Source of the DNA: Octopus sinensis
Lineage: Eukaryota
Assembly (NCBI RefSeq): GCF_006345805.1
Contig: NC_042997.1
Location: 162,874,001-162,938,000 of the forward strand
Direction: 5' to 3'
Length of the DNA stretch: 64,000 bases
Each line of letters begins with the position of its first letter. The stretch's first letter is position 1. Of the stretch, positions 5,508-62,639 are shown piece by piece. A program made the translations under genes and the position numbers. Below the pieces are notes generated by a model, which searched no databases, was not told the DNA's origin, and saw nothing but the letters and a program-made list of their open reading frames with translations.

Positions 5508-6100
5508 TATATATAAGCGCAATTGCCAGGCTTCTACAAAAATGTGTCTATATATGCAAATTAGCATACACATTGTTAATTGTGTATGTATGTGTGTGCG
5601 TGAATATATACATATTGTATGTATGTTCCAAGTTGTAGACCATGAAATTACGCCTATGTCGGAGAAATTTTACATACAGGCACATCTCATGAAGGAATTC
5701 ATAGGCCAGGGGACTTTTTCTAGTACCTCCTAGTAAAACACCAAGTCATGCTGTCCACGGCTGCCAGTGTGTGTGTTTGTGTGTGCATATGGGTGTGCGC
5801 GTGCACGCATATATGTGCAGAACACACAAATACACAAACACACACACATATATAATGTATGTGTGTACATATATCATATATGTGCATGTATGTAATTAAC
5901 CGTATAATATAATTGTTTCATAGACCTTGGACATTATTTTAAGTACGCTTGCCACTGGCTTAAATTATTATTAATTAATAATATTAATTTCTACCCTCAA
6001 TATTTAACTTTATATATATATATATATATATATACTACAGTTCTATATTTAAGAGATGAGGAATTTTGTACATTATTTACATTCGACGGATATTTGTCCT

Positions 6101-6142
6101 CAACGTTTCGGCTGAGATGCCCTACAGCCTTCTTCAGGTGTC
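6101..6142 (-). ncRNA. Minimal type-I hammerhead motif with most of the 3' stem I strand deleted
   Basis: Minus strand: GACAC CTGAAGA A GGCTG-TAGGGCATCT-CAGCC GAAA CG TT G. A palindromic AACGTT stands in place of stem III. Confidence 0.65.
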
Positions 6143-6197
6143 TTGGGGAAATTTCAAACCTGGGTTCTCATTGGTAAGGTATTTTTCGATGTTGTTG

Positions 6198-6246
<49 letters not shown>

Positions 6247-6268
6247 CATCATTATTATTATTATTATT

Positions 6269-6821
6269 GAGTGAGAGAGCAGTTCATGCCATCAAAGTGA
6301 CACTGGGGTAAAATATACGAAGACCAATATACCCATCATGACTACCCGTCTGATAAAGGTACACCAGGCACATGCATCACAACCATATGTGCACGACATG
6401 GTGATCTCATATCAAGATAAACAGCACATGACCTTGCAGGTGGGGCCCAGTTAGAATTTTCTTCAGGTTGAGTAGCCCATCCCGCTCAAAAGGTCCCTGA
6501 ATAAGGGTTGTTTAAGGATGTTGGAAGAACCACCCATGTTTCCAGAGGTGAACTATTCAAACCTCAAAGAATCCCTCTCAACACATGGCTATGATGCTCC
6601 CCCACAACTTCTGCTCGTGATCAGAGATGCACATATCGTCAGCCACTAAGGGACATGCTCAACTGGTTAAGGTCAAACAACTGACAAGCAAATCTGTGGT
6701 ATTGAGCAGAATATTTGCTGTAGCCCATCTTTTATACCAAGACAAAACAATGTACATGATAACACTTCCAATCAGTTAAGATCAGAAGCCATGAGAGCCA
6801 CTGCCTGGTACTGCATCAGGG

Positions 6822-6822
<1 letters not shown>
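6269..6822 (-). mobile_element. ~550-bp non-coding repeat inserted in (TTA)n (copy 1)
   Basis: A near-identical copy lies at 62046-62589. Both are flanked by TTA repeats and share the same left boundary GAGTGAG(A/C)GAGCAG. Confidence 0.85.
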
Positions 6823-6860
<38 letters not shown>

Positions 6861-6906
6861 TATTATTATTATTATTATTACTATTATTATTATTATTATT
6901 ATTATT

Positions 6907-7052
6907 CAGTAGTTTTATATTTTTATATCGTGCTTTCACTTCACTACCGAGCGCAGCTCTGTGTGCCTTGGGTATGTGCTGTGATTTGTTGTGATGCTCT
7001 GATGGTTATTGTATGGAAGGTGTTCTGCGTAGGATGTGTGCAGTGCCTAGTA

Positions 7053-7053
<1 letters not shown>
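6907..7053 (-). mobile_element. Extreme 3' end of an R4/Dong-type LINE in (TTA)n
   Basis: Minus strand reads LLGTAHILRRT..* plus UTR. It matches 59053-59200 and the GTAHILR motif at the end of ORF 13418..13840. Confidence 0.8.
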
Positions 7054-7118
<65 letters not shown>

Positions 7119-7809
7119 CTGGCCACTGCTTGGAATCGAACTCGGAATCTTGGGGTTAGTAGCCCGCACTCTTAACCACTATGCCATATGCCCGTGGGCA
7201 TATGGCAAGAGTGCTTATAACCACGGCTGGAAGGCCTTTCTGCAATGTTTGTACGCCCATTGTCAACACAATGGGGTTAATGTATTTCACACCAGCACCA
7301 CCACCACCACCACAACAACAACAGCAACAACAACAACAACAACAACAGTACTAATCGTCAAGCCTATGAATTTTGCTCTTGTGTAAAATATATATGTTTC
7401 TCTTATAGTCTCGTGATTGCTAGCTTCTCCCACATTTTCCAGTTCGTCGTGATCGATATTTCGGCGAGTCTTAAGTCAGTATAAGTTATTCTTCACTTCC
7501 TTTAAAACTCACTGTGTTACAAGCTATGATACAGCTCGTTAAAGACAAACGGACACGCCCCGTTTAACTTCCGCTTTTATGCAAAACTTGAGATATTGCT
7601 CATGCACCAGATACAAGATGAAGGTCAGAGACATATTGCACAAGGAAAATATTTCTATAAAGTCAGTGATTCAGTAAAATATTTGACTTTTTATTCGCCA
7701 CAAGAAGAAAAATCTAATGGCGACTGTTGTGCGTATGTCTGTGAAGAAACCCATCAATCCATCCGTTCTTTTACATATACATATTTTCATTGCATACACA
7801 CATACATAC

Positions 7810-12267: not shown

Positions 12268-12651
12268 GAAATAGAAATTGACAAAAAGTGGAACCTCAAG
12301 ACTAAAACAATACCTGTTGCCATAGGCGCCTTAGGAATGATAGCAAAAGGGGTTGATTGCTACCTAGCTCAGATACCAGGAAATCCAAAAATGGCAAAAA
12401 TTCATAAGATAGTGCTCATAGGAACTGCTCATATCCTACGGAAAATACTGTCTATGTAATCTCAAATTCTAAAACAATCTTATAATTTTCTTATGTTCTC
12501 TTAAGCATTCTCTAGAACAATACTTTGTGCAAAACCAAATATATGGCACCTTAATGATAACATCAACCTGAACATCTAACCTGTTGTGTTTCGAGGTCTC
12601 TGAGTGAGACTCGGAGCCAACTTGTACAAATACAAAACAAAAGACAAACTT

Positions 12652-12655
<4 letters not shown>
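12268..12655 (+). mobile_element. 5'-truncated R4/Dong-type LINE 3' end
   Basis: Translates EID.KWNLKTKTIPVAIGALGMIAKG..YLAQIPGNPKMAKIHKIVLIGTAHILRKILSM*, paralogous to 13650-13840. Ends in (TAA)n. Confidence 0.88.
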
Positions 12656-12701
<46 letters not shown>

Positions 12702-12702
12702 T

Positions 12703-14047
12703 ATTGACAGAAAAATACGAAAACTGTTGACAATGCATAGAATGCACCACCCTAAGGCAAATACAGAACGACTTTATCTGCCAAGAAAAGAGGGAGGCCG
12801 TGGACTTTTACAACTGGCAATAACAATGAAGATTGCTACAATTGGCCTAGACACCTACCTGAAAAACTCTGAGGACTGGATGTTAAAACTTGTCTCAAAA
12901 CATGAAAACAAGAAAGCATCATACTCAGTAACAAAACAGGCAAAGGAATATCTAAGTGAATTCCGAATGCAACAAATTTCGGAATTAGAGATAGACATAC
13001 AAGAAACAGGCACAGAAAAAGCTAAGCGCATGAAAACCCGTGCTAAATCTGCGGCCTTAGATATTCTGAATGATAAATGGCAAGAAACACCTCTCTATGG
13101 CAAATACCCAAAGAGAGCAAATAATGCAGATGTTGACAAAGCCCTGACCCATCAATGGCTAATGGCCTCTGGCTTAAAATCTGAAACAGAGGTTTATCAT
13201 AGCAGCTCAAGATCAATGCCTACCAACAAGAAACTACCAGGCCAACATATTAAGATCAGAAGCAGTCCAACGTGTCGTGTATGCAAGCAACAAAATGAAA
13301 CCATTGACCATGTGGTCTCCAAGTGCAGTCTTCTAGCGCCTACAGAGTATCTCAACAGGCACGATAGAGCTGCACAATATATTCACTGGGTAATCTGCAA
13401 AAACCTGGATTTGCCCCATGACAAAAAACTGGTGGGAACACAAACCACCCCCAGTGCTTGAAAATGACCACATCTCACTCCTCTGGAACTTCACCATTCA
13501 AACTGACAGAAAGATAGATGCAAATAGGCCAGACATCATATTGAAAGACTTCAAACAAAGAACATGCCTCCTCATTGATATGACTGTCCCAATCGATATA
13601 AACGTATCTGTCAAGACCTACCAAAAACTGAGCAAATATAAAGATCTTGAAATAGAAATCAGCAAAATGTGGAACCTCAAGACTAAAACACAACCTGTTG
13701 TCATAGGTGCCCTGGGAATGATAGCAAAAGGGGCTGATAGCTACCTAACTCAGATACCAGGAAACCCCAAAATGGCAGAAATTCAAAAGATAGTGCTCAT
13801 GGGAACTGCTCATATCCTACGCAAAATACTTTCTATGTAATCTCAAGGTTTAAAACAAACATAATTTTCGGTTTACAAAAAAAAAAAAAAAGTAAACTCT
13901 TTTTAGACATTCATTAGTACACACCCCCCCAATATATGGCACACTAGGCATAACAACAACATGAACTTCCAACCCTGTTGTCTCTTGAGGTCTCTGGGTG
14001 AGACTTGGAGCCAACTTGTACAAATATAAAGCAAAAGTCAAACATAG
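12703..14047 (+). mobile_element. 5'-truncated R4/Dong-type LINE (C-terminal CCHC finger + restriction-like endonuclease)
   Basis: CRVCKQQNETIDHVVSKC..RHD zinc finger and NRPDIILKD..CLLIDMTVP..KY.DL (PD-D/ExK). Frameshifted, and flanked by (TAA)n on both sides, the known Dong target. Confidence 0.92.
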
Positions 14048-14942: not shown

Positions 14943-15179
14943 GTGTGTATGTGTGTGTGTGTATGTGTGTGTGTATGCGTTCTTGTGTGTATGTATGTGT
15001 GATGAGAATGGAATATAATGAAGAATTTCAGCTAAAATACACCATGCTAAACTAAATACGGCATAGACGGGATTCCGAACCAATTCTAAAATTCAAAGAC
15101 ATATATGATCAATTCAAATATTTGCATAATAGAATGGTACAAGGAAAGAAATAGATCTAATAGACCTAATGACCTACTG

Positions 15180-16391
15180 AAATACTTTGAGAAATTGGTT
15201 TTCGGATCAACACCACTGAAACCAACCTTATGGCTGCGATATGTTGATGACATCTTTATACTCTGGTCCTACAATGAAGATAAAGCTAGCCATACAGTTC
15301 ACAATGGAAAAGGACGTACTAATAACACGCATTCCTGGACGTATTAATAACACGCACCAAGTATAGATTCAGGACATCTGTATACCGCAAGCCGACTTTC
15401 GCTGGACGATACCTCAACTTCAATTCCCACCATCCATACTGTGTAAAGAGAGAGATTGGTCAGTGCCTAAAACATCGAGCAAAGAATATAAGTAGCGATC
15501 GTGATACACACCACGAAGAAATGATCAAGCTCAATAACGATCTGTTAAGCAACAACTATCCCAAAAACAGACTATCCACTCCAATTATGAAGAAAAGAGG
15601 GGATGAAACCAATAAACTGTCCACAGTCTGCCTACACTATGTGAAAGGCCTCTCCGAAAAGATACAAAAGATATGCGACCCATATGACATCAGGACAGTA
15701 TTCAAGAGTAATATAACACTTCGCAAATATCTCCTTCGAGTAAAACCACCAATAAAAGTGAATATGACCAAAGTCTACGTGTACTCCATCCTATGCAGCT
15801 GTGGTAGGTAATATAATGGCGAAACATGCCCCCCCCCCACCCCAAAGTAAGGGTAGACGAACATCGCAAAGCTGTGACACGAGGAGATATTAATAAATCG
15901 GGTATAGCTGATCATGTATGGGAAAATGGAGACGACCTCCTCCTGTCGGATGAAGTTAAAATAATAGACAGAGAACACTACTGGAAAATACAAAAACTAA
16001 AAGAAGCAACACATATGCTAGGACACAGCAACCTCCTAAGCAGACCAAATGCAGATATGAATAGCATATGGGAACCGATATTAAGGAAGGATAGGAAAAT
16101 AGATTTACTTCATAATTGCCTACGGGCATATGGCGTAGTGGTTAAGAGCGCGGGCTACTAACCCCAAAATTCAATTCCAGGCAGTGACCTGAAAAATATA
16201 ATAATAATAATAATAATAATAATAACATCGAAAAATACCTTAGGAATGAGAACCCAGGTTCGAAATTTCCCCAAGACACCTGATGAAGGCTGGAGGGTAT
16301 ATCAACCGAAACATTGTGTTAACAGGATAACAACTATTCGTCAAATGTAAATAATGTACATAATTTCTCATCTCTTAGATACAGAACTGTA
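15180..16391 (+). mobile_element. Degenerate Penelope-like element (RT C-terminus + GIY-YIG endonuclease + terminal repeat)
   Basis: RT motif LWLRYVDDIFILW, linker LHYVKGLSEKIQKI, GIY-YIG-like VYSILCSCGR*YNGET..RVDEHRK..KSGIADH..KLKEA. Followed by a tail containing an HHR. Confidence 0.9.
16275..16320 (+). ncRNA. Minimal type-I hammerhead in the Penelope terminal repeat (two substitutions)
   Basis: GACAC CTGATGA A GGCTG-GAGGGTATAT-CAACC GAAA CA TT GTGTT. Stem I is GACAC/GTGTT. Confidence 0.7.
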
Positions 16392-19962: not shown

Positions 19963-21554
19963 ACAGGCTTCTTTCAGTTTCAGTCTATCAGATTCACTCA
20001 CGAGGCTTTCATCGGCCCGAGGCTATAGTAGCAGACACTTGCCGAAGGTGCCAGACGGTGGGTCTGAACCATATAATTGGGATAGAAACGTCTTACCACA
20101 CAGCCACGCCTACGCCTGTATGTATATAAATTCATTCCAAATTATACACCGATTTCGCTAGATAGACCCTTTCTATTATAAAGGTATTACAAATGATACA
20201 TAAAAACATTATTGTTATATTTCGGAAGTGTCATGATTGATAAAGCCTATAAACACACTCAATGCTTATTATTTGTCTATATTTCACCTCTTTTTCTTTT
20301 TCTAATGCAGTTGGTGTTTGCTTATTCCCCCTACCCCACCCAATATTTTTCACAATATCGATCCGCAGCCTTTTCAATAGGTGTAAATACTTTCTTTTAA
20401 ATGCTTGATTTTTTAGTTTTCAACGGATTTTGACTGTTGTTATATTTCTATAGAAAGCATATCAGCTAATGACCTTTCTGATTATTATTATGCTTTGCCG
20501 TCGATATCGTTGTTGTTCTGGTTGTTGTTGTTGTTGTTAACATCAGAACATGTGTCTGTGTGTATGTGTGTGTGTTTGCTTGTCTGTGTGTGTGATTGAA
20601 TTGCATGACTTTACTCGTTCTCAGACTAACACTCAATCATTTAAAAGAAAAAAAATACACCCATTCAAAAGGTTACAGACCGGTGCAGTGAAAAATATTA
20701 GCCGTTTTTTGGACTAACTAAAAACCAAACATTTAAAAGAAAAACTATACACCCATTGAAAAGGTTATAGGTCGATAAAAGGAAAAATATTTTGATGGGA
20801 CGTAAACAAAAATAGATTACTTTAGGTAAAAGAACAAAAAATACAATAAAACCAAACACCTGGCGAATGTGTTTATAGACTTTAGGGTTGCGACTCTTCT
20901 CAAATACCAACAATATTGGTTTCATTATCCGGCTCCAGATCAAAATTCTTACACACAAATTCAATATTAAAAAAAAGAAAATTTACAGAAACTGTCGCCA
21001 CTAACCCCTAAGCCCGTTCTAGTTTGCACACTATCACCAAAAATTGGAAAGAAGCAGCAAGTATCGTACTCCGACCGTATCCATCTTGCCACCCTCGCTG
21101 TGGTCACCATCAGAATTTGTGGGTATACAAGAATGGAAAAAAAGAAAAGTAGACTATCAGGCTACATTCCTTACAACTTAGCCCTGCTTGTCGGGTTGTT
21201 GAGTGAAGCCCGTGGACCAGATCGAATCACGAGGAAGTCTCATTGTTCGGTCGACTTTGTTGCGCTATATCGGACTGTTTGAATAGGATTGACTAGGAGA
21301 GGCACAACTACAACAACAACAACAACAACAAGAGCAAAACCCTAAAATTCTACACACCAGATAACTGTCCAGTGTACCCATTTATAAGATAGCCTTGAAC
21401 TCTCCTATATGCATATTTGCGGTAACAATGGATGGGAAAATTTGTACACCAATCTGAAAATCTGACAGTCAAAACCAAAACCACCAAGTAGGCAGAGCAC
21501 TTTAGAGGATATTAGTTCTTTAGAGAACTAATAATATAATAATACAAAAACTAT

Positions 21555-21765
21555 TGGATTGTCCGGAAAGTTCGTGCCGATTTATAGTAGCTTACCTTTC
21601 AACTTATTTTAGAACATGGTTGAATCCATAAAATAGGATTTGACTACACCTCCATTTAGAGCACCGTTTATGCTATCTTTTCGTGGAAGAAGGTTTATGT
21701 TCCTATAACCTGTGTTAATTCTGTAACCCTTTAAAATGGAAGATAAGAAAGTTCCTTTTCGGCAC
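21555..21765 (+). mobile_element. 5' end of a mariner (same family as 17429)
   Basis: TA-TTGGATTGTCCGGAAAGTTCGTGCCGATTTATAG... through ATGGAAGATAAGAAAG matches 17429-17630. Confidence 0.88.
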
Positions 21766-24700
21766 GTTTTTTTTAGAAATTATCATCTTTTACTTGTTTC
21801 TGTCATAGGACTGCAACCATGCTGGAGCACCGTACTGAAGGGTTTAGTCGAACAAATCAACTTAAATACTTATTTGAAAACCGTTATTTATTCCAAAGGT
21901 CACTTTCGCCGAACGTTAAAATGCGGAGACGTTGTTAAACTAACACCGGTTGTCAAGCAGTGGTGCAGGATAAACACAAGCACAAAGAAACACCTCACAC
22001 ATAGATATAAGACTGGCTTCCACACAATTTCCATTTACCAAATTCACTCGTAAAGCATTGGTCTCTCCTTGGGCTGTTGTAGAAAATACTTGTCCAAGAT
22101 GTGTTTTAGTATAGTTATTGTCATCGTCATTGTCATCGCCAATAACAACAACGTTGTATTATTATCGTCGGAACAAAGGGGAAATGCTGGAAATAGCTTA
22201 AATGGATTCTGGTTCTTGTTATATTTTTTGCTTTTAAGAAGTAAACATTGAAAAATTTGCACAAACACACACGCCCATACACACACACAGAGGCACACAC
22301 ACAGGCACACACACACACACACCACACACACACACACATACACACATGCACACACACAGACACGTGCGCGCGCGCAGGTTTTCAGACATATAGTAAACTA
22401 GCTTAAAAGCCGCCATGTGGAGAGCTCTTTATTAGGCCTTAGGACCAACAATGACACTTCATGCATTGAGTACATATTATATTTTCTTAAACTTCAACAA
22501 TATTTTTCAAGCAATGAACATTTTGCATCAAAACAATGATATAATTTGTCGACTTGGAACTTATCGCAAAGCTGCATAATAAACAACAGTACCGCCACCA
22601 TCGCCACCACATCTGCCATACACACACCATTCAGACTTCTGACGCCAGCACCATCATTACTTTTGACTTGGCTGTCTTCCCCTCCACCATCATCACCACC
22701 GCCGCCAACTACAGCTAGTACTATGACTATCACCCCATTACCATCACAAAAAGGCTAAATGTGTGTGTAAAAGAATTCAGTGTTCAGTATGTTCGTTCAG
22801 TATGTTAGTTCAGTATGTTGGTTCAGTGTTCACTCCTTCTTTCTTTCTTTCACATGACCACTCTGTTTTTCTCTCTTACTATCACTTCCACTGCCACCAT
22901 CAACACTACTACTTTTAATAAAACATCCTCAACTCTCCCTTAGATTCTTTTTCTCTCTTTCTCTCCCGCTCTTCCCCCTCTCTCTGTCTTCGCCACCGCC
23001 CTCACCGTCTCTATGCTTATTATTACTCTCACCCCAGCATGTGCAATAGTGATTGAGGGTGTCAAAGTGTGACACATTGACACACAGAAATAAGTTTCCA
23101 CATTTATCATATTCGTAGTCACGTGCCTAAGATGCCTTGCAATCGGATCGAACCTGTTATCTCGTGATTGAGAAGCAAAATTTTTAAACATTCAGCTATA
23201 CTGTATCTCTATACACACTAAAACAGTCGAACTTAAACACACACACATATACACATTTTAACACAAACGCACACATACACACACATTCATACATACGTAC
23301 TATATATTACACGCAAGAATTAGTAAACTACACAGCAAACAATAAAGTATAACAAATAAAAAAAAAGAAAAAAGAAAGAAAGAAGTTTATAAAGATTTTT
23401 CTGGAGTTCGGCTGGCATTCGATTCCACCAATTATTGTTGTCTGAATTCTGATAAAAGCGTGTCGTGTGTCTCTCAAAAATCATTTGCTCTTTTATTGAG
23501 AAGATTTGAGATAGAGAAGGAAGAAAAAAAAAAGGTAAAGAAAAGAAAAAAGTAGATTCTAGCATAACATTGACTTTGTAGGAAAGAATATATAAAAAGA
23601 ATAGAAATAGAATTCGACAGACAGAGAAATACAATTATCACACAATCACCATAGAAATACAATTATCACACTGTTCCCGGTGCTGATTCTGCGATACGAA
23701 TTCAGCATAACAACTACACGACCATCGCTTGTTATGTATCAGTTTTTATTTTTATTTTTTACCCATTTTTATTCCATTAGTTGATTTTTCGTTGTTGTTG
23801 TTGTTGTTTTCTTGTGACGACGAGTGGGAGTATTTATAATACAATGGGATGATAGATACAATGGTTACAGAGTCGGTAAAAATACTTTGTAACATTCGTT
23901 CCGGCTTTTTACGTTCAGCATTCAAATCCCGCCGATGTCAAATTTGCCTTTCATCCTTTCGTGGTCGATAAAATAAAATAACAGTCAAATAGTGAGATGG
24001 ATAATATCAGATCAAATCCGTCTCCCCCCTCTCTCTCTCTCTCCTAACAAAATGAACGGCCTTGTGTTTGAATTTGAAAATATTAACCCCTCAGAACTGG
24101 ACCCCTGGCGGCCTTCGGGCTAAAACATTTTTAAGGATTTAAGGATTTATAGTTGGATACGCAGTTCAAGAGTAACGATTGTAGACAAACTAATGCATAA
24201 AATCGGCAGCATCTTCTTTTTCAATGTATATTATTCATTACGAGAATCCAGCAGAGAAGACATTTAAACTATTCCCGCTATAGCAGGAATCCAGCAAGAT
24301 AGGATTAATGAGGTCTAAAAAATGGCAGCCAGTTAGCAGAATCATTAGAGCATCGGGCACATTTTTGTTCCAGCACTTGTTGAAATCCTATCGAGAACTT
24401 TTCAAACTTTCGGATTCGATAAAACACATAACCAGTCAAGTAGTCGGCAGATAATATCAATTGCCCACCTTCTTCTTCCCCCTTAAAGCTTCGAGTCTTG
24501 TGCCTATTTAAGCGGCTGACTGGCAGTATCGCTAGAGCGTCGGACAAGATACCTTTCGGTATTTTTTCCGGCTCCTTTACTGCAATTCTCACCGTCCCTG
24601 CGGGGTCGATAAAATAAGGTACCTCTCAAGTACTTGATTTAACCGACTAACCTCATTCCCTCGAAAATTACTAGCAAAATCAGTAGAGCATCGGAAAATT

Positions 24701-58987: not shown

Positions 58988-59052
<65 letters not shown>

Positions 59053-59055
<3 letters not shown>

Positions 59056-59425
59056 TAGTTTTATTTTTATAGCGTGCTTTCACTTCACTACCGAGCGCAG
59101 CTCTTTGTGCCTTGGGTATGTGCTGTGGTTTGTTGTGATGCTCTTATGGTTACTGTATTGAGAGTGTTTTGCGTAGGATGTGTGCAGTGCCCAGTAGTGC
59201 AATTTTCTGTATGTTATATATATTTGTAAGTCCTGGTGTTTTTGTTATGTATTTGTCTGAATATTTTTTATCATGCCTAATGCGCCTACTATAATAGGAA
59301 TTGTTTCTGTTTTTAGATTTCACATTCGAGTTACCTCTATTTCCAGTTCTTTGTATTTTGAAAGTTTCTCCATTTCTTTTAGAGAAACGTTGTCATCTGC
59401 TGGTATTGATACATCAATTATAAAG
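59053..59425 (-). mobile_element. R4/Dong-type LINE 3' end between (TTA)n tracts
   Basis: Minus strand reads CFIIDVSIPADDNVSLKEMEKLSKYKELEIEVTRMWNLKTETIPIIVGALG..LLGTAHILRKTL. Confidence 0.88.
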
Positions 59426-62006: not shown

Positions 62007-62045
<39 letters not shown>

Positions 62046-62589
62046 GAGTGAGCGAGCAGAGCATGCCACCAAAGTGACACTGGGGTAAAATATACGAAGC
62101 CCAGTATACCCATCATGACTACCCGTCTGATAAGGGTACACCAGGCACATGCATCACAACCATATGTGCGCGACATGGTGATCTCATATCAAGATAAACA
62201 GCACATGACCTTGCAGTGGAGCCCAGTTAGAATTTTCTTCAGATCGAGTAACCCATCCCGCTCAAAAGGTCCCTGAATAGGGTTGTTTAAGGACGTTGAA
62301 CGAAACACCCATGTTTCCAGAGGTGAATTATTCAAACCCCAAAGAATCCTTCTCAACACATGGCTATGATGCTCCCCCACTACTTCTGCTCGTGATCAGA
62401 GATGCACATATCGTCAGCCACTAAGGGACATGCTCAACTGGTTAAGGTCAAACAACTGACAAGCAAATCTGTGGTATTGAGCAGAATATTTGCTGTAGCC
62501 CATCTTTTATACCAAGACAAAACAATGTACATGATAACACTTCCAATCAGTTAAGATCAGAAGCCATGAGAGCCACTGCCTGGTACTGC
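62046..62589 (-). mobile_element. ~550-bp non-coding repeat inserted in (TTA)n (copy 2)
   Basis: Paralogue of 6269-6822. Confidence 0.85.
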
Positions 62590-62591
62590 TA

Positions 62592-62639
<48 letters not shown>

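Follow-up and report, generated by a model that had tools for sequence, protein, structure and literature searches.

A repeat on the minus strand of a 64,000-nucleotide stretch of Octopus sinensis DNA (NC_042997.1, positions 162,874,001 to 162,938,000; hereafter the window) represents a short, dead copy of the terminal repeat (pLTR) of a Penelope element, interrupted twice by other repeats, and the tRNA-derived head of this repeat is likely an internal RNA polymerase III (Pol III) promoter. We give this reading a probability of roughly 0.7.

Structure of the solo copy in the window

Read along the minus strand, the copy starts with a short inverted arm of 11 bp (7206–7196), which lies on the plus strand and repeats the initial 11 nt of the head as a fold-back, followed by a 2-nt spacer (7195–7194), a 74-nt tRNA-derived head (7193–7120, +1 being 7193), a (TAA)n spacer and a 156-nt pLTR tail (6191–6036) with a minimal type I hammerhead. 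The initial annotation had described a solo unit at 6036–7206 and proposed an RNA of about 270 nt; the three parts of the unit, head, (TAA)n and hammerhead tail, are all present, but the unit is not contiguous and spans 1.17 kb, with two younger repeats interrupting its (TAA)n. The first part of the spacer (7119–7053, minus strand) is followed by insertion A (7052–6905, minus strand), identified from its translation and a second copy as the 148-bp 3' end of a 5'-truncated LINE; beyond insertion B (6268–6823), a non-coding repeat of about 556 bp and fixed length with a second copy in the window, the last part of the spacer reads (TAA/CAA)n (6267–6192, minus strand). The hairpin with 11-bp arms reported at the start of the unit, GCCATATGCCC-GT-GGGCATATGGC, was confirmed at 7183–7206 and is the short form of a head-to-head inverted arm found upstream of 52 of 90 sampled tails. 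The 3' end of the copy lies within (TA)n and is the distal of the two 3' ends of the family. No target duplication was found at this copy, the only one at which duplications were scored.

The window hammerhead consists of the 5' strand of stem I (6142–6138), the core CTGAAGA (6137–6131), stem II and GAAAC-GTT (6109–6102). A 20-nt deletion after GAAACGTT eliminates the 3' strand of stem I (GAGGA vs GTGTT), so that the hammerhead is unable to close and the copy is dead. It had been described as a hammerhead with an AACGTT palindrome: the core motifs are indeed present in the window copy, but the palindrome does not hold for the copy at 16280 (GAAACATT). Moreover, insertions A and B bring three T4 runs upstream of the hammerhead. 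Because of the interruptions, the added T4 runs and the loss of stem I, the window copy cannot yield the proposed RNA, and the locus was rejected as a functional RNA gene.

Insertion A has its second copy at 59051–59196, its C-terminal peptide matches a TAA-inserted LINE at 12715–14040, which we take to be Dong-R4-like, and its upstream continuation was present in longer copies at 9 of 10 loci. The second copy of insertion B (62045–62594) is 96% identical, and the repeat has 33 matches in the fetched loci (76–98% identity, mostly >95%), with TAA flanks in 14 of the 14 matches listed. It contains no ORF of more than 59 codons, no terminal inverted repeat and no A- or B-box match, is often located within the Penelope (TAA)n spacer, and is possibly a non-autonomous partner of a TAA-targeting LINE. 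LINEs inserted in (TAA)n, all 5'-truncated and broken, belong to at least two families in the window (12715–14040 and 12270–12660 on the plus strand, 6905–7052 and 59051–59196 on the minus strand); they carry a zf-RVT domain and a restriction-like endonuclease motif.

A tRNA-like head with A and B boxes

ARAGORN called no tRNA in the window or, with relaxed settings, in the head majority sequence, and Rfam (gathering threshold on the window, E-value on six loci) called neither the head nor the hammerhead. The apparent kinship of the head to tRNA is based on aligning the head with tRNAs from the same genome, for which a partial isotype set was used (27 distinct sequences of five isotypes, Arg, Ala, Cys, Lys and Thr, plus Phe). 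The head majority is collinear with these tRNAs from position 1, tRNA-Arg(TCT) being the best match (z 7.5) and the other isotypes giving z values of 3.3–7.1. In the window copy, the A box (7186–7176) reads TGGCATAGTGG; its presence had been noted before, but the sequence then quoted, TGGCGTAGTGG, belongs to the copy at 16131. The B box of the window copy (7143–7132) reads GTTCGATTCC at 7141–7132, and in the head at 16124 a 7-nt deletion disrupts this box. The A box occupies +8 to +18, starting 13 nt after −6, and lies 32 nt from the B box. This spacing and position agree with the SINE Pol III consensus, which is placed 10–15 nt from the 5' end (excerpts of PMC8969392). As in tRNA-derived SINEs, a tRNA-related head with A and B boxes stands near the 5' end, and it likely acts as a Pol III promoter.

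Head, (TAA)n and hammerhead form the pLTR of a Penelope-like element

The window also contains, on the plus strand, a broken, 5'-truncated Penelope ORF of the same family (15177–16110), whose translations show the end of the reverse transcriptase (RT) and then a C-terminal GIY-YIG region. Attached to it is a pLTR (16111–16391) composed of a short UTR, a head (16124–16190), (TAA)n and a tail (16226–16391) with the hammerhead core at 16280–16315. The head of the solo copy is 94% identical over 51 nt to 16122–16172, and its tail is 84% identical to 16226–16391. In the family copy L192 an RVT_1 match was obtained with Pfam (E 1.3e-7), and homologues carry PF00078 and PF26215. The GIY-YIG/CCHH region, C-terminal to RT, was recognised by eye in L192 and in the window, Pfam giving no match to the GIY-YIG pieces or to the window ORF pieces. 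Long copies have a single ORF with RT followed by GIY-YIG (the latter assigned by eye), as in PLEs with a C-terminal endonuclease (EN+). Further PLE features are a minimal type I hammerhead, of which the motif and stems are present in the family majority, partial tandems (pLTR), a 30–40-bp tail and inverted 5'-truncated copies, the last being standard among PLEs (PMC8557442). By every feature tested the element is an EN+ PLE, and its domain layout, rather than a tree, suggests a Penelope/Poseidon-type clade; no CxxC precedes the GIY-YIG motif in L192, while Neptune and Nematis possess a CxxC finger at this place (PMC8557442).

Exact 25-mers were counted in 2.72 Gb of genome sequence, giving 4189 matches for the tail, 1573 for the B box, 1315 for the head start (+1 to +25) and 435 for the ORF end (about 80 nt upstream), compared with none for the reversed controls. 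Since only 25 of 136 tails found with other anchors contain the exact tail 25-mer, the family would comprise about 20,000–23,000 arms, as a rough estimate. The sampled loci were the first matches along contig C1, the one that holds the window. A tail was found within 1.5 kb downstream of the head at 28 of 30 B-box-anchored and 25 of 30 5'-anchored loci, order and orientation being fixed in these 53 of 60 cases, and the ORF end is followed by the head in 25 of 30 loci. For the tail sample, 90 loci were taken from the first 100 matches listed (six loci fetched via the head pattern and the last three were left out, and one locus has two matches). Of these tails, 40 sit in units whose 5' end is the head start and 12 adjoin ORF or UTR sequence, while in 9 the head is cut and in 29 it is absent. 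The count of copies with and without an adjacent Penelope ORF, which the initial annotation had called for, comes to 12 attached units against 40 solo units starting at the head.

In 7 of 30 loci that contain the ORF start (four of the 30 being near-duplicates), namely L224, L225, L227, L228, L232 (with a deletion), L236 and L240, a head–TAA–tail module directly precedes this start, which identifies the module as the pLTR of the autonomous element. The ORF end, the head and the tail are all represented in contigs of four other organism labels, and in three of the four the ORF end is bridged to the head with at least 31 letters on each side. Genome-wide, head, (TAA)n and hammerhead are one fixed module, the pLTR of an element that is probably of Penelope/Poseidon type. 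That an unrelated tRNA SINE landed by chance beside the Penelope tail in a shared microsatellite is highly improbable: (TAA)n tracts do gather unrelated insertions, two of them at the window locus itself, but this would not account for the fixed order and orientation, no other conserved body lies downstream of the head, and the UTR–head junction of attached copies contains no microsatellite. Chance insertion, which the initial annotation had named as a possible refutation of its proposal, is refuted by the head–tail linkage and by the module before the ORF start in tandem copies.

Most copies that reach the head begin there

The 5' ends were determined for 121 distinct head arms from 120 loci. 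Among the 91 arms reaching +10, 71 stop between −7 and +10 of tRNA position 1 (the "5' wall"), with peaks at −7 (16 arms) and +1 (13 arms); nine of the 71 are fold-backs that had been aligned by chance to −14 to −17 and were reassigned to −7, and one arm of another SINE (L287) is included. Within the wall the stop hazard is 0.060 per nt, compared with 0.0037 elsewhere, a 16-fold difference whose nominal P is overstated because arms of one insertion are not independent. The exact 25-mer counts also drop at the wall, from 1573 at the B box and 1315 at +1 to +25 to 435 about 80 nt upstream. In the most divergent of the other organism labels (X19), loose contig ends lie at −3 (65 contigs) and +1 (71 contigs). 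The solo copies do not, then, have random 5' truncations, in line with what had been predicted for them. As the head is not a chance SINE and the 5' ends are non-random, a Pol III start is likely.

A different origin of the wall has to be weighed. The head could be a captured tRNA or SINE passenger, the wall a result of RT fold-back at a hairpin or of a Pol II start, and the solo units ordinary 5'-truncated Penelope copies. A 9-bp hairpin (−15 to +11, −9.6 kcal/mol) does lie on the wall and is the strongest fold in the last 300 nt; however, at +11 to +28, within a palindrome of similar strength, the hazard is only 0.0097 per nt, 6-fold below that of the wall. Fold-back junctions are frequent, and the palindrome at +17 gathers eight of them too, yet many copies begin at −7 to +5 on unrelated flanks without fold-back, and 13 arms start exactly at +1. 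In nine sampled copies the inverted head gives a better fit to the fold-back arms than does the Penelope UTR, and since these arms are without the AT bulge of the UTR, the cDNA stopped near −7 and not at variable points as far as −15. The PLE promoters characterised so far are Pol II-like (PMC8557442; excerpts of PMC2377424) and three RNA-seq runs contained no discrete RNA (see below), both as expected for a passenger; the intact box spacing and the sense strand free of T4 are not. Taken together, we consider a passenger head unlikely. Two observations run against Pol III initiation as well. While three of the seven tandem copies begin at the upstream head, the other four extend past it into the UTR, and Drosophila virilis Penelope has a LINE-like, TATA-less internal promoter (excerpts of PMC2377424).

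Solo and ORF-attached copies probably share one source

Of 165 tail arms located through the 5' half of the tail, 83 have their 3' end in one cluster and 64 in another, the two being about 30–50 nt apart and both downstream of the hammerhead, in agreement with the two RT starts and 30–40-bp tail of PAc, the element of Anolis carolinensis (excerpts of PMC11167929). Within the tandem unit these ends map to the ORF start, and so differ from the 3' ends of SINEs, which are copied from the end of the RNA and accompanied by a target site duplication (TSD). A hammerhead cut was rejected as their source, as only 1 of the 165 arms has its end 5 nt or less from the cleavage site. Likewise, no peak marks cleavage at the 5' ends: in a set of 337 arms, which mixes loci selected with several patterns, six end at 90–94, compared with 1–3 per 5 nt before and 3–7 after this interval.

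No diagnostic column distinguishes 85 solo from 48 ORF-attached units (the smallest p, 0.009, stays above the threshold of 0.00025; 51 intermediate-class arms and two near-duplicates were left out), the Fst-like value between them is 0.001 (permutation p 0.26), and their non-CpG divergence is 4.8 and 5.0%, respectively. A non-autonomous lineage with source copies of its own, as SINEs have, is not apparent in this comparison, and the solo units probably arise as by-products from the transcript of the element itself. Retrozyme-like tandem arrays are likewise absent from the 90 tail-anchored loci, which are single or head-to-head with one direct tail pair (L071). The self-cleaving SINE/retrozyme hybrid of about 270 nt proposed in the initial annotation is therefore not supported, solo and attached copies sharing one sequence and one age and a single 3' end lying near the cleavage site.

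A SINE or retrozyme made of self-propagating solo units, mobilised by Penelope, with dispersed copies as Pol III templates and the hammerhead as processing step, is in our judgement slightly less probable still than a passenger head. Such a lineage would fit the excess of solo tails starting at the wall over attached ones, the retention of the A box in 54, of the B box in 57 and of the hammerhead core in 32 of the 85 solo copies, and the existence of non-autonomous PLE derivatives (excerpts of bioRxiv 10.64898/2026.07.22.740005; MRC1, PMC8557442). It would not be expected to show neither subfamily marker nor age difference, ends away from the cleavage site at both sides and dispersed copies without arrays; in PAc, moreover, the RNA required for activity reaches beyond the part that is copied (excerpts of PMC11167929). 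We retain this alternative because a shared source would be mimicked if a very young SINE master had produced one brief burst of copies.

Frequent non-CpG variants within the family hammerhead sit at permissive positions (U/A at N7, CUGA-U/A-GA; U/C at the cleavage site), and the cleavage triplets GUU and GUC occur in a ratio of 102:18 across the family. The position of these variants hints at selection on ribozyme function in source copies.

T4 runs and RNA data

The sense strand of the 2721-nt column majority contains no T4 run, compared with 4.8 expected by shuffling (P 0.0035) and 2.6 and 2.0 under two Markov models (P 0.10 and 0.13). In natural ORF segments there were 36 T4 runs against 108 by synonymous resampling (0.52 vs 1.56 per kb; the 106 segments are non-independent), and Phe, with 534 TTC to 195 TTT codons, has the strongest C bias among six two-codon amino acids. 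Because the copies descend from one source, this depletion counts as one observation; a control LINE had 1.7 T4 runs per kb in one segment and 0.19 in another. As a sign that Pol III may read through the ORF, the loss of T4 is suggestive only. In the search for a second Penelope family as a control, 150 protein matches (70–100% identity) were taken as one family, and tblastn of the fetched loci gave one weak outside match.

RNA data came from three RNA-seq runs of a related organism label, of which about 6% each was read. Depth was high over the unit and equal in both directions (the strandedness of the library is not known), and very low at the ORF start, and 69% of the reads continue into unrelated sequence, a pattern that passive co-transcription in host transcripts would give. 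RNA ends had been predicted at the head and at the hammerhead cleavage site; in these three runs, from libraries that may lose short RNAs, there was neither a pile-up of starts or ends nor a discrete RNA.

Proposed mechanism and comparison with known systems

If the head is a Pol III promoter, transcription would start at about −6, which places the start 13 nt before the A box. By analogy with the anole Poseidon element in vitro, the element's protein would begin reverse transcription inside the RNA, at the junction of repeat and ORF, and priming at the first internal site would copy the RNA to its 5' end and so give a solo unit from the element's own transcript. The end of the cDNA could then fold back on the GCCC/GGGC palindrome, resulting in a hairpin, or be joined to a second arm, and multimeric or circular RNA may give rise to copies that extend into the ORF. 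Solo copies, without the downstream protein-binding RNA, would be dead ends, as suggested by PAc, and their (TAA)n would later have drawn in TAA-targeting repeats. A bolder version, which we put forward tentatively and with the odds somewhat against it, is that an autonomous coding retrotransposon captured a tRNA gene as its promoter, that Pol III reads all 2.7 kb, that the ORF was purged of T4 and is translated uncapped, and that internal priming yields SINE-like copies, a route from Penelope to SINE.

The closest characterised relative is PAc, in which two internal RT start sites at the pLTR–ORF junction underlie the PLE tail, RNA beyond the start sites is required and no reads end at the hammerhead site (excerpts of PMC11167929). 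To the extent that PAc is described in these excerpts, the octopus element shares with it a single ORF with RT and C-terminal GIY-YIG, partial tandems as pLTRs, a hammerhead at the pLTR–ORF junction, two 3' ends (about 30 nt apart in PAc), AT-rich targets and the absence of sequences ending at the hammerhead site; unlike PAc, its pLTR contains (TAA)n and a tRNA-derived head of full length, A and B boxes included, and its 5' ends cluster at this head. Dispersed single minimal hammerheads have earlier been interpreted as truncated PLEs (excerpts of PMC4209133). The octopus hammerhead resembles the minimal metazoan PLE hammerheads of that source in having no true helix III, a palindromic 15.2/16.2 pair and an unpaired base before stem II, and in occurring mostly as dispersed singles or as inverted pairs 100–700 bp apart, but the excerpts mention no tRNA-type head.

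The initial annotation knew of no description of its combination; the joining of a tRNA head to a hammerhead is in fact known from Schistosoma, where Sm-alpha and Sj-alpha are tRNA-related, apparently Pol III-transcribed short repeats with a hammerhead and more than 10,000 copies (excerpts of PMC6765202 and PMC2770079). According to the same excerpts these repeats are non-coding and often tandem, their active hammerhead frees monomers and no partner ORF is named, whereas the octopus module is the terminal repeat of a coding element with ends that appear to be set by RT start sites. Non-LTR retrozymes, proposed derivatives of PLEs, are also pLTR-related, hammerhead-bearing and non-coding, with monomers genome-wide (excerpts of PMC7761336 and bioRxiv 10.64898/2026.07.22.740005). 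Their definition requires circular RNA and tandem arrays in which every unit has a hammerhead; neither was observed in the octopus element, and the excerpts describe no tRNA head. The octopus element is SINE-like at its 5' end and falls outside SINEs and retrozymes in showing no lineage of its own, no TSD at the window copy and no tandem arrays. In the open literature, excerpts of two cephalopod repeat papers included, we found no autonomous Penelope repeat described as containing a tRNA head; a repeat-library entry may exist.

A promoter type otherwise typical of non-coding parasites would here serve a protein-coding Penelope element. PLE promoters have been characterised in very few cases, and these look Pol II-like. 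R2 retroelements are co-transcribed by Pol I, and a Pol III promoter in the pLTR would, if real, constitute a third expression route for an autonomous retroelement, beside those of Pol II LINEs and Pol I R2. Two questions would also become testable, namely how a PLE RNA that has a hammerhead and no cap is translated and how PLEs give rise to SINE-like or retrozyme-like elements. In practical terms, roughly 20,000 arms, by our rough estimate, that an annotation pipeline could label as SINEs are likely Penelope by-products.

Other sequences in the sampled loci

On the minus strand of L196, about 143–980 from its end, a stop-free frame of 279 codons resembles the RT end of a different Penelope-like family and contains three T4 runs in 837 nt. 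At about 1450–1500 of L287 the head of a different tRNA-like SINE adjoins a Penelope head arm, with only box-like motifs in common. Upstream of the ORF start in L237, about 150 nt within the pLTR tail are very G+C-rich in AT-rich surroundings, possibly an assembly or contamination artefact. At L308–L310 (C1:77303811–77303931) the ORF-end 25-mer is repeated at 32- and 64-bp steps, forming a short tandem repeat derived from the Penelope ORF end. Finally, L192, L193, L219 and L220 represent one long Penelope insertion with identical flanks on C1 and three small contigs, either a segmental duplication or uncollapsed haplotypes.
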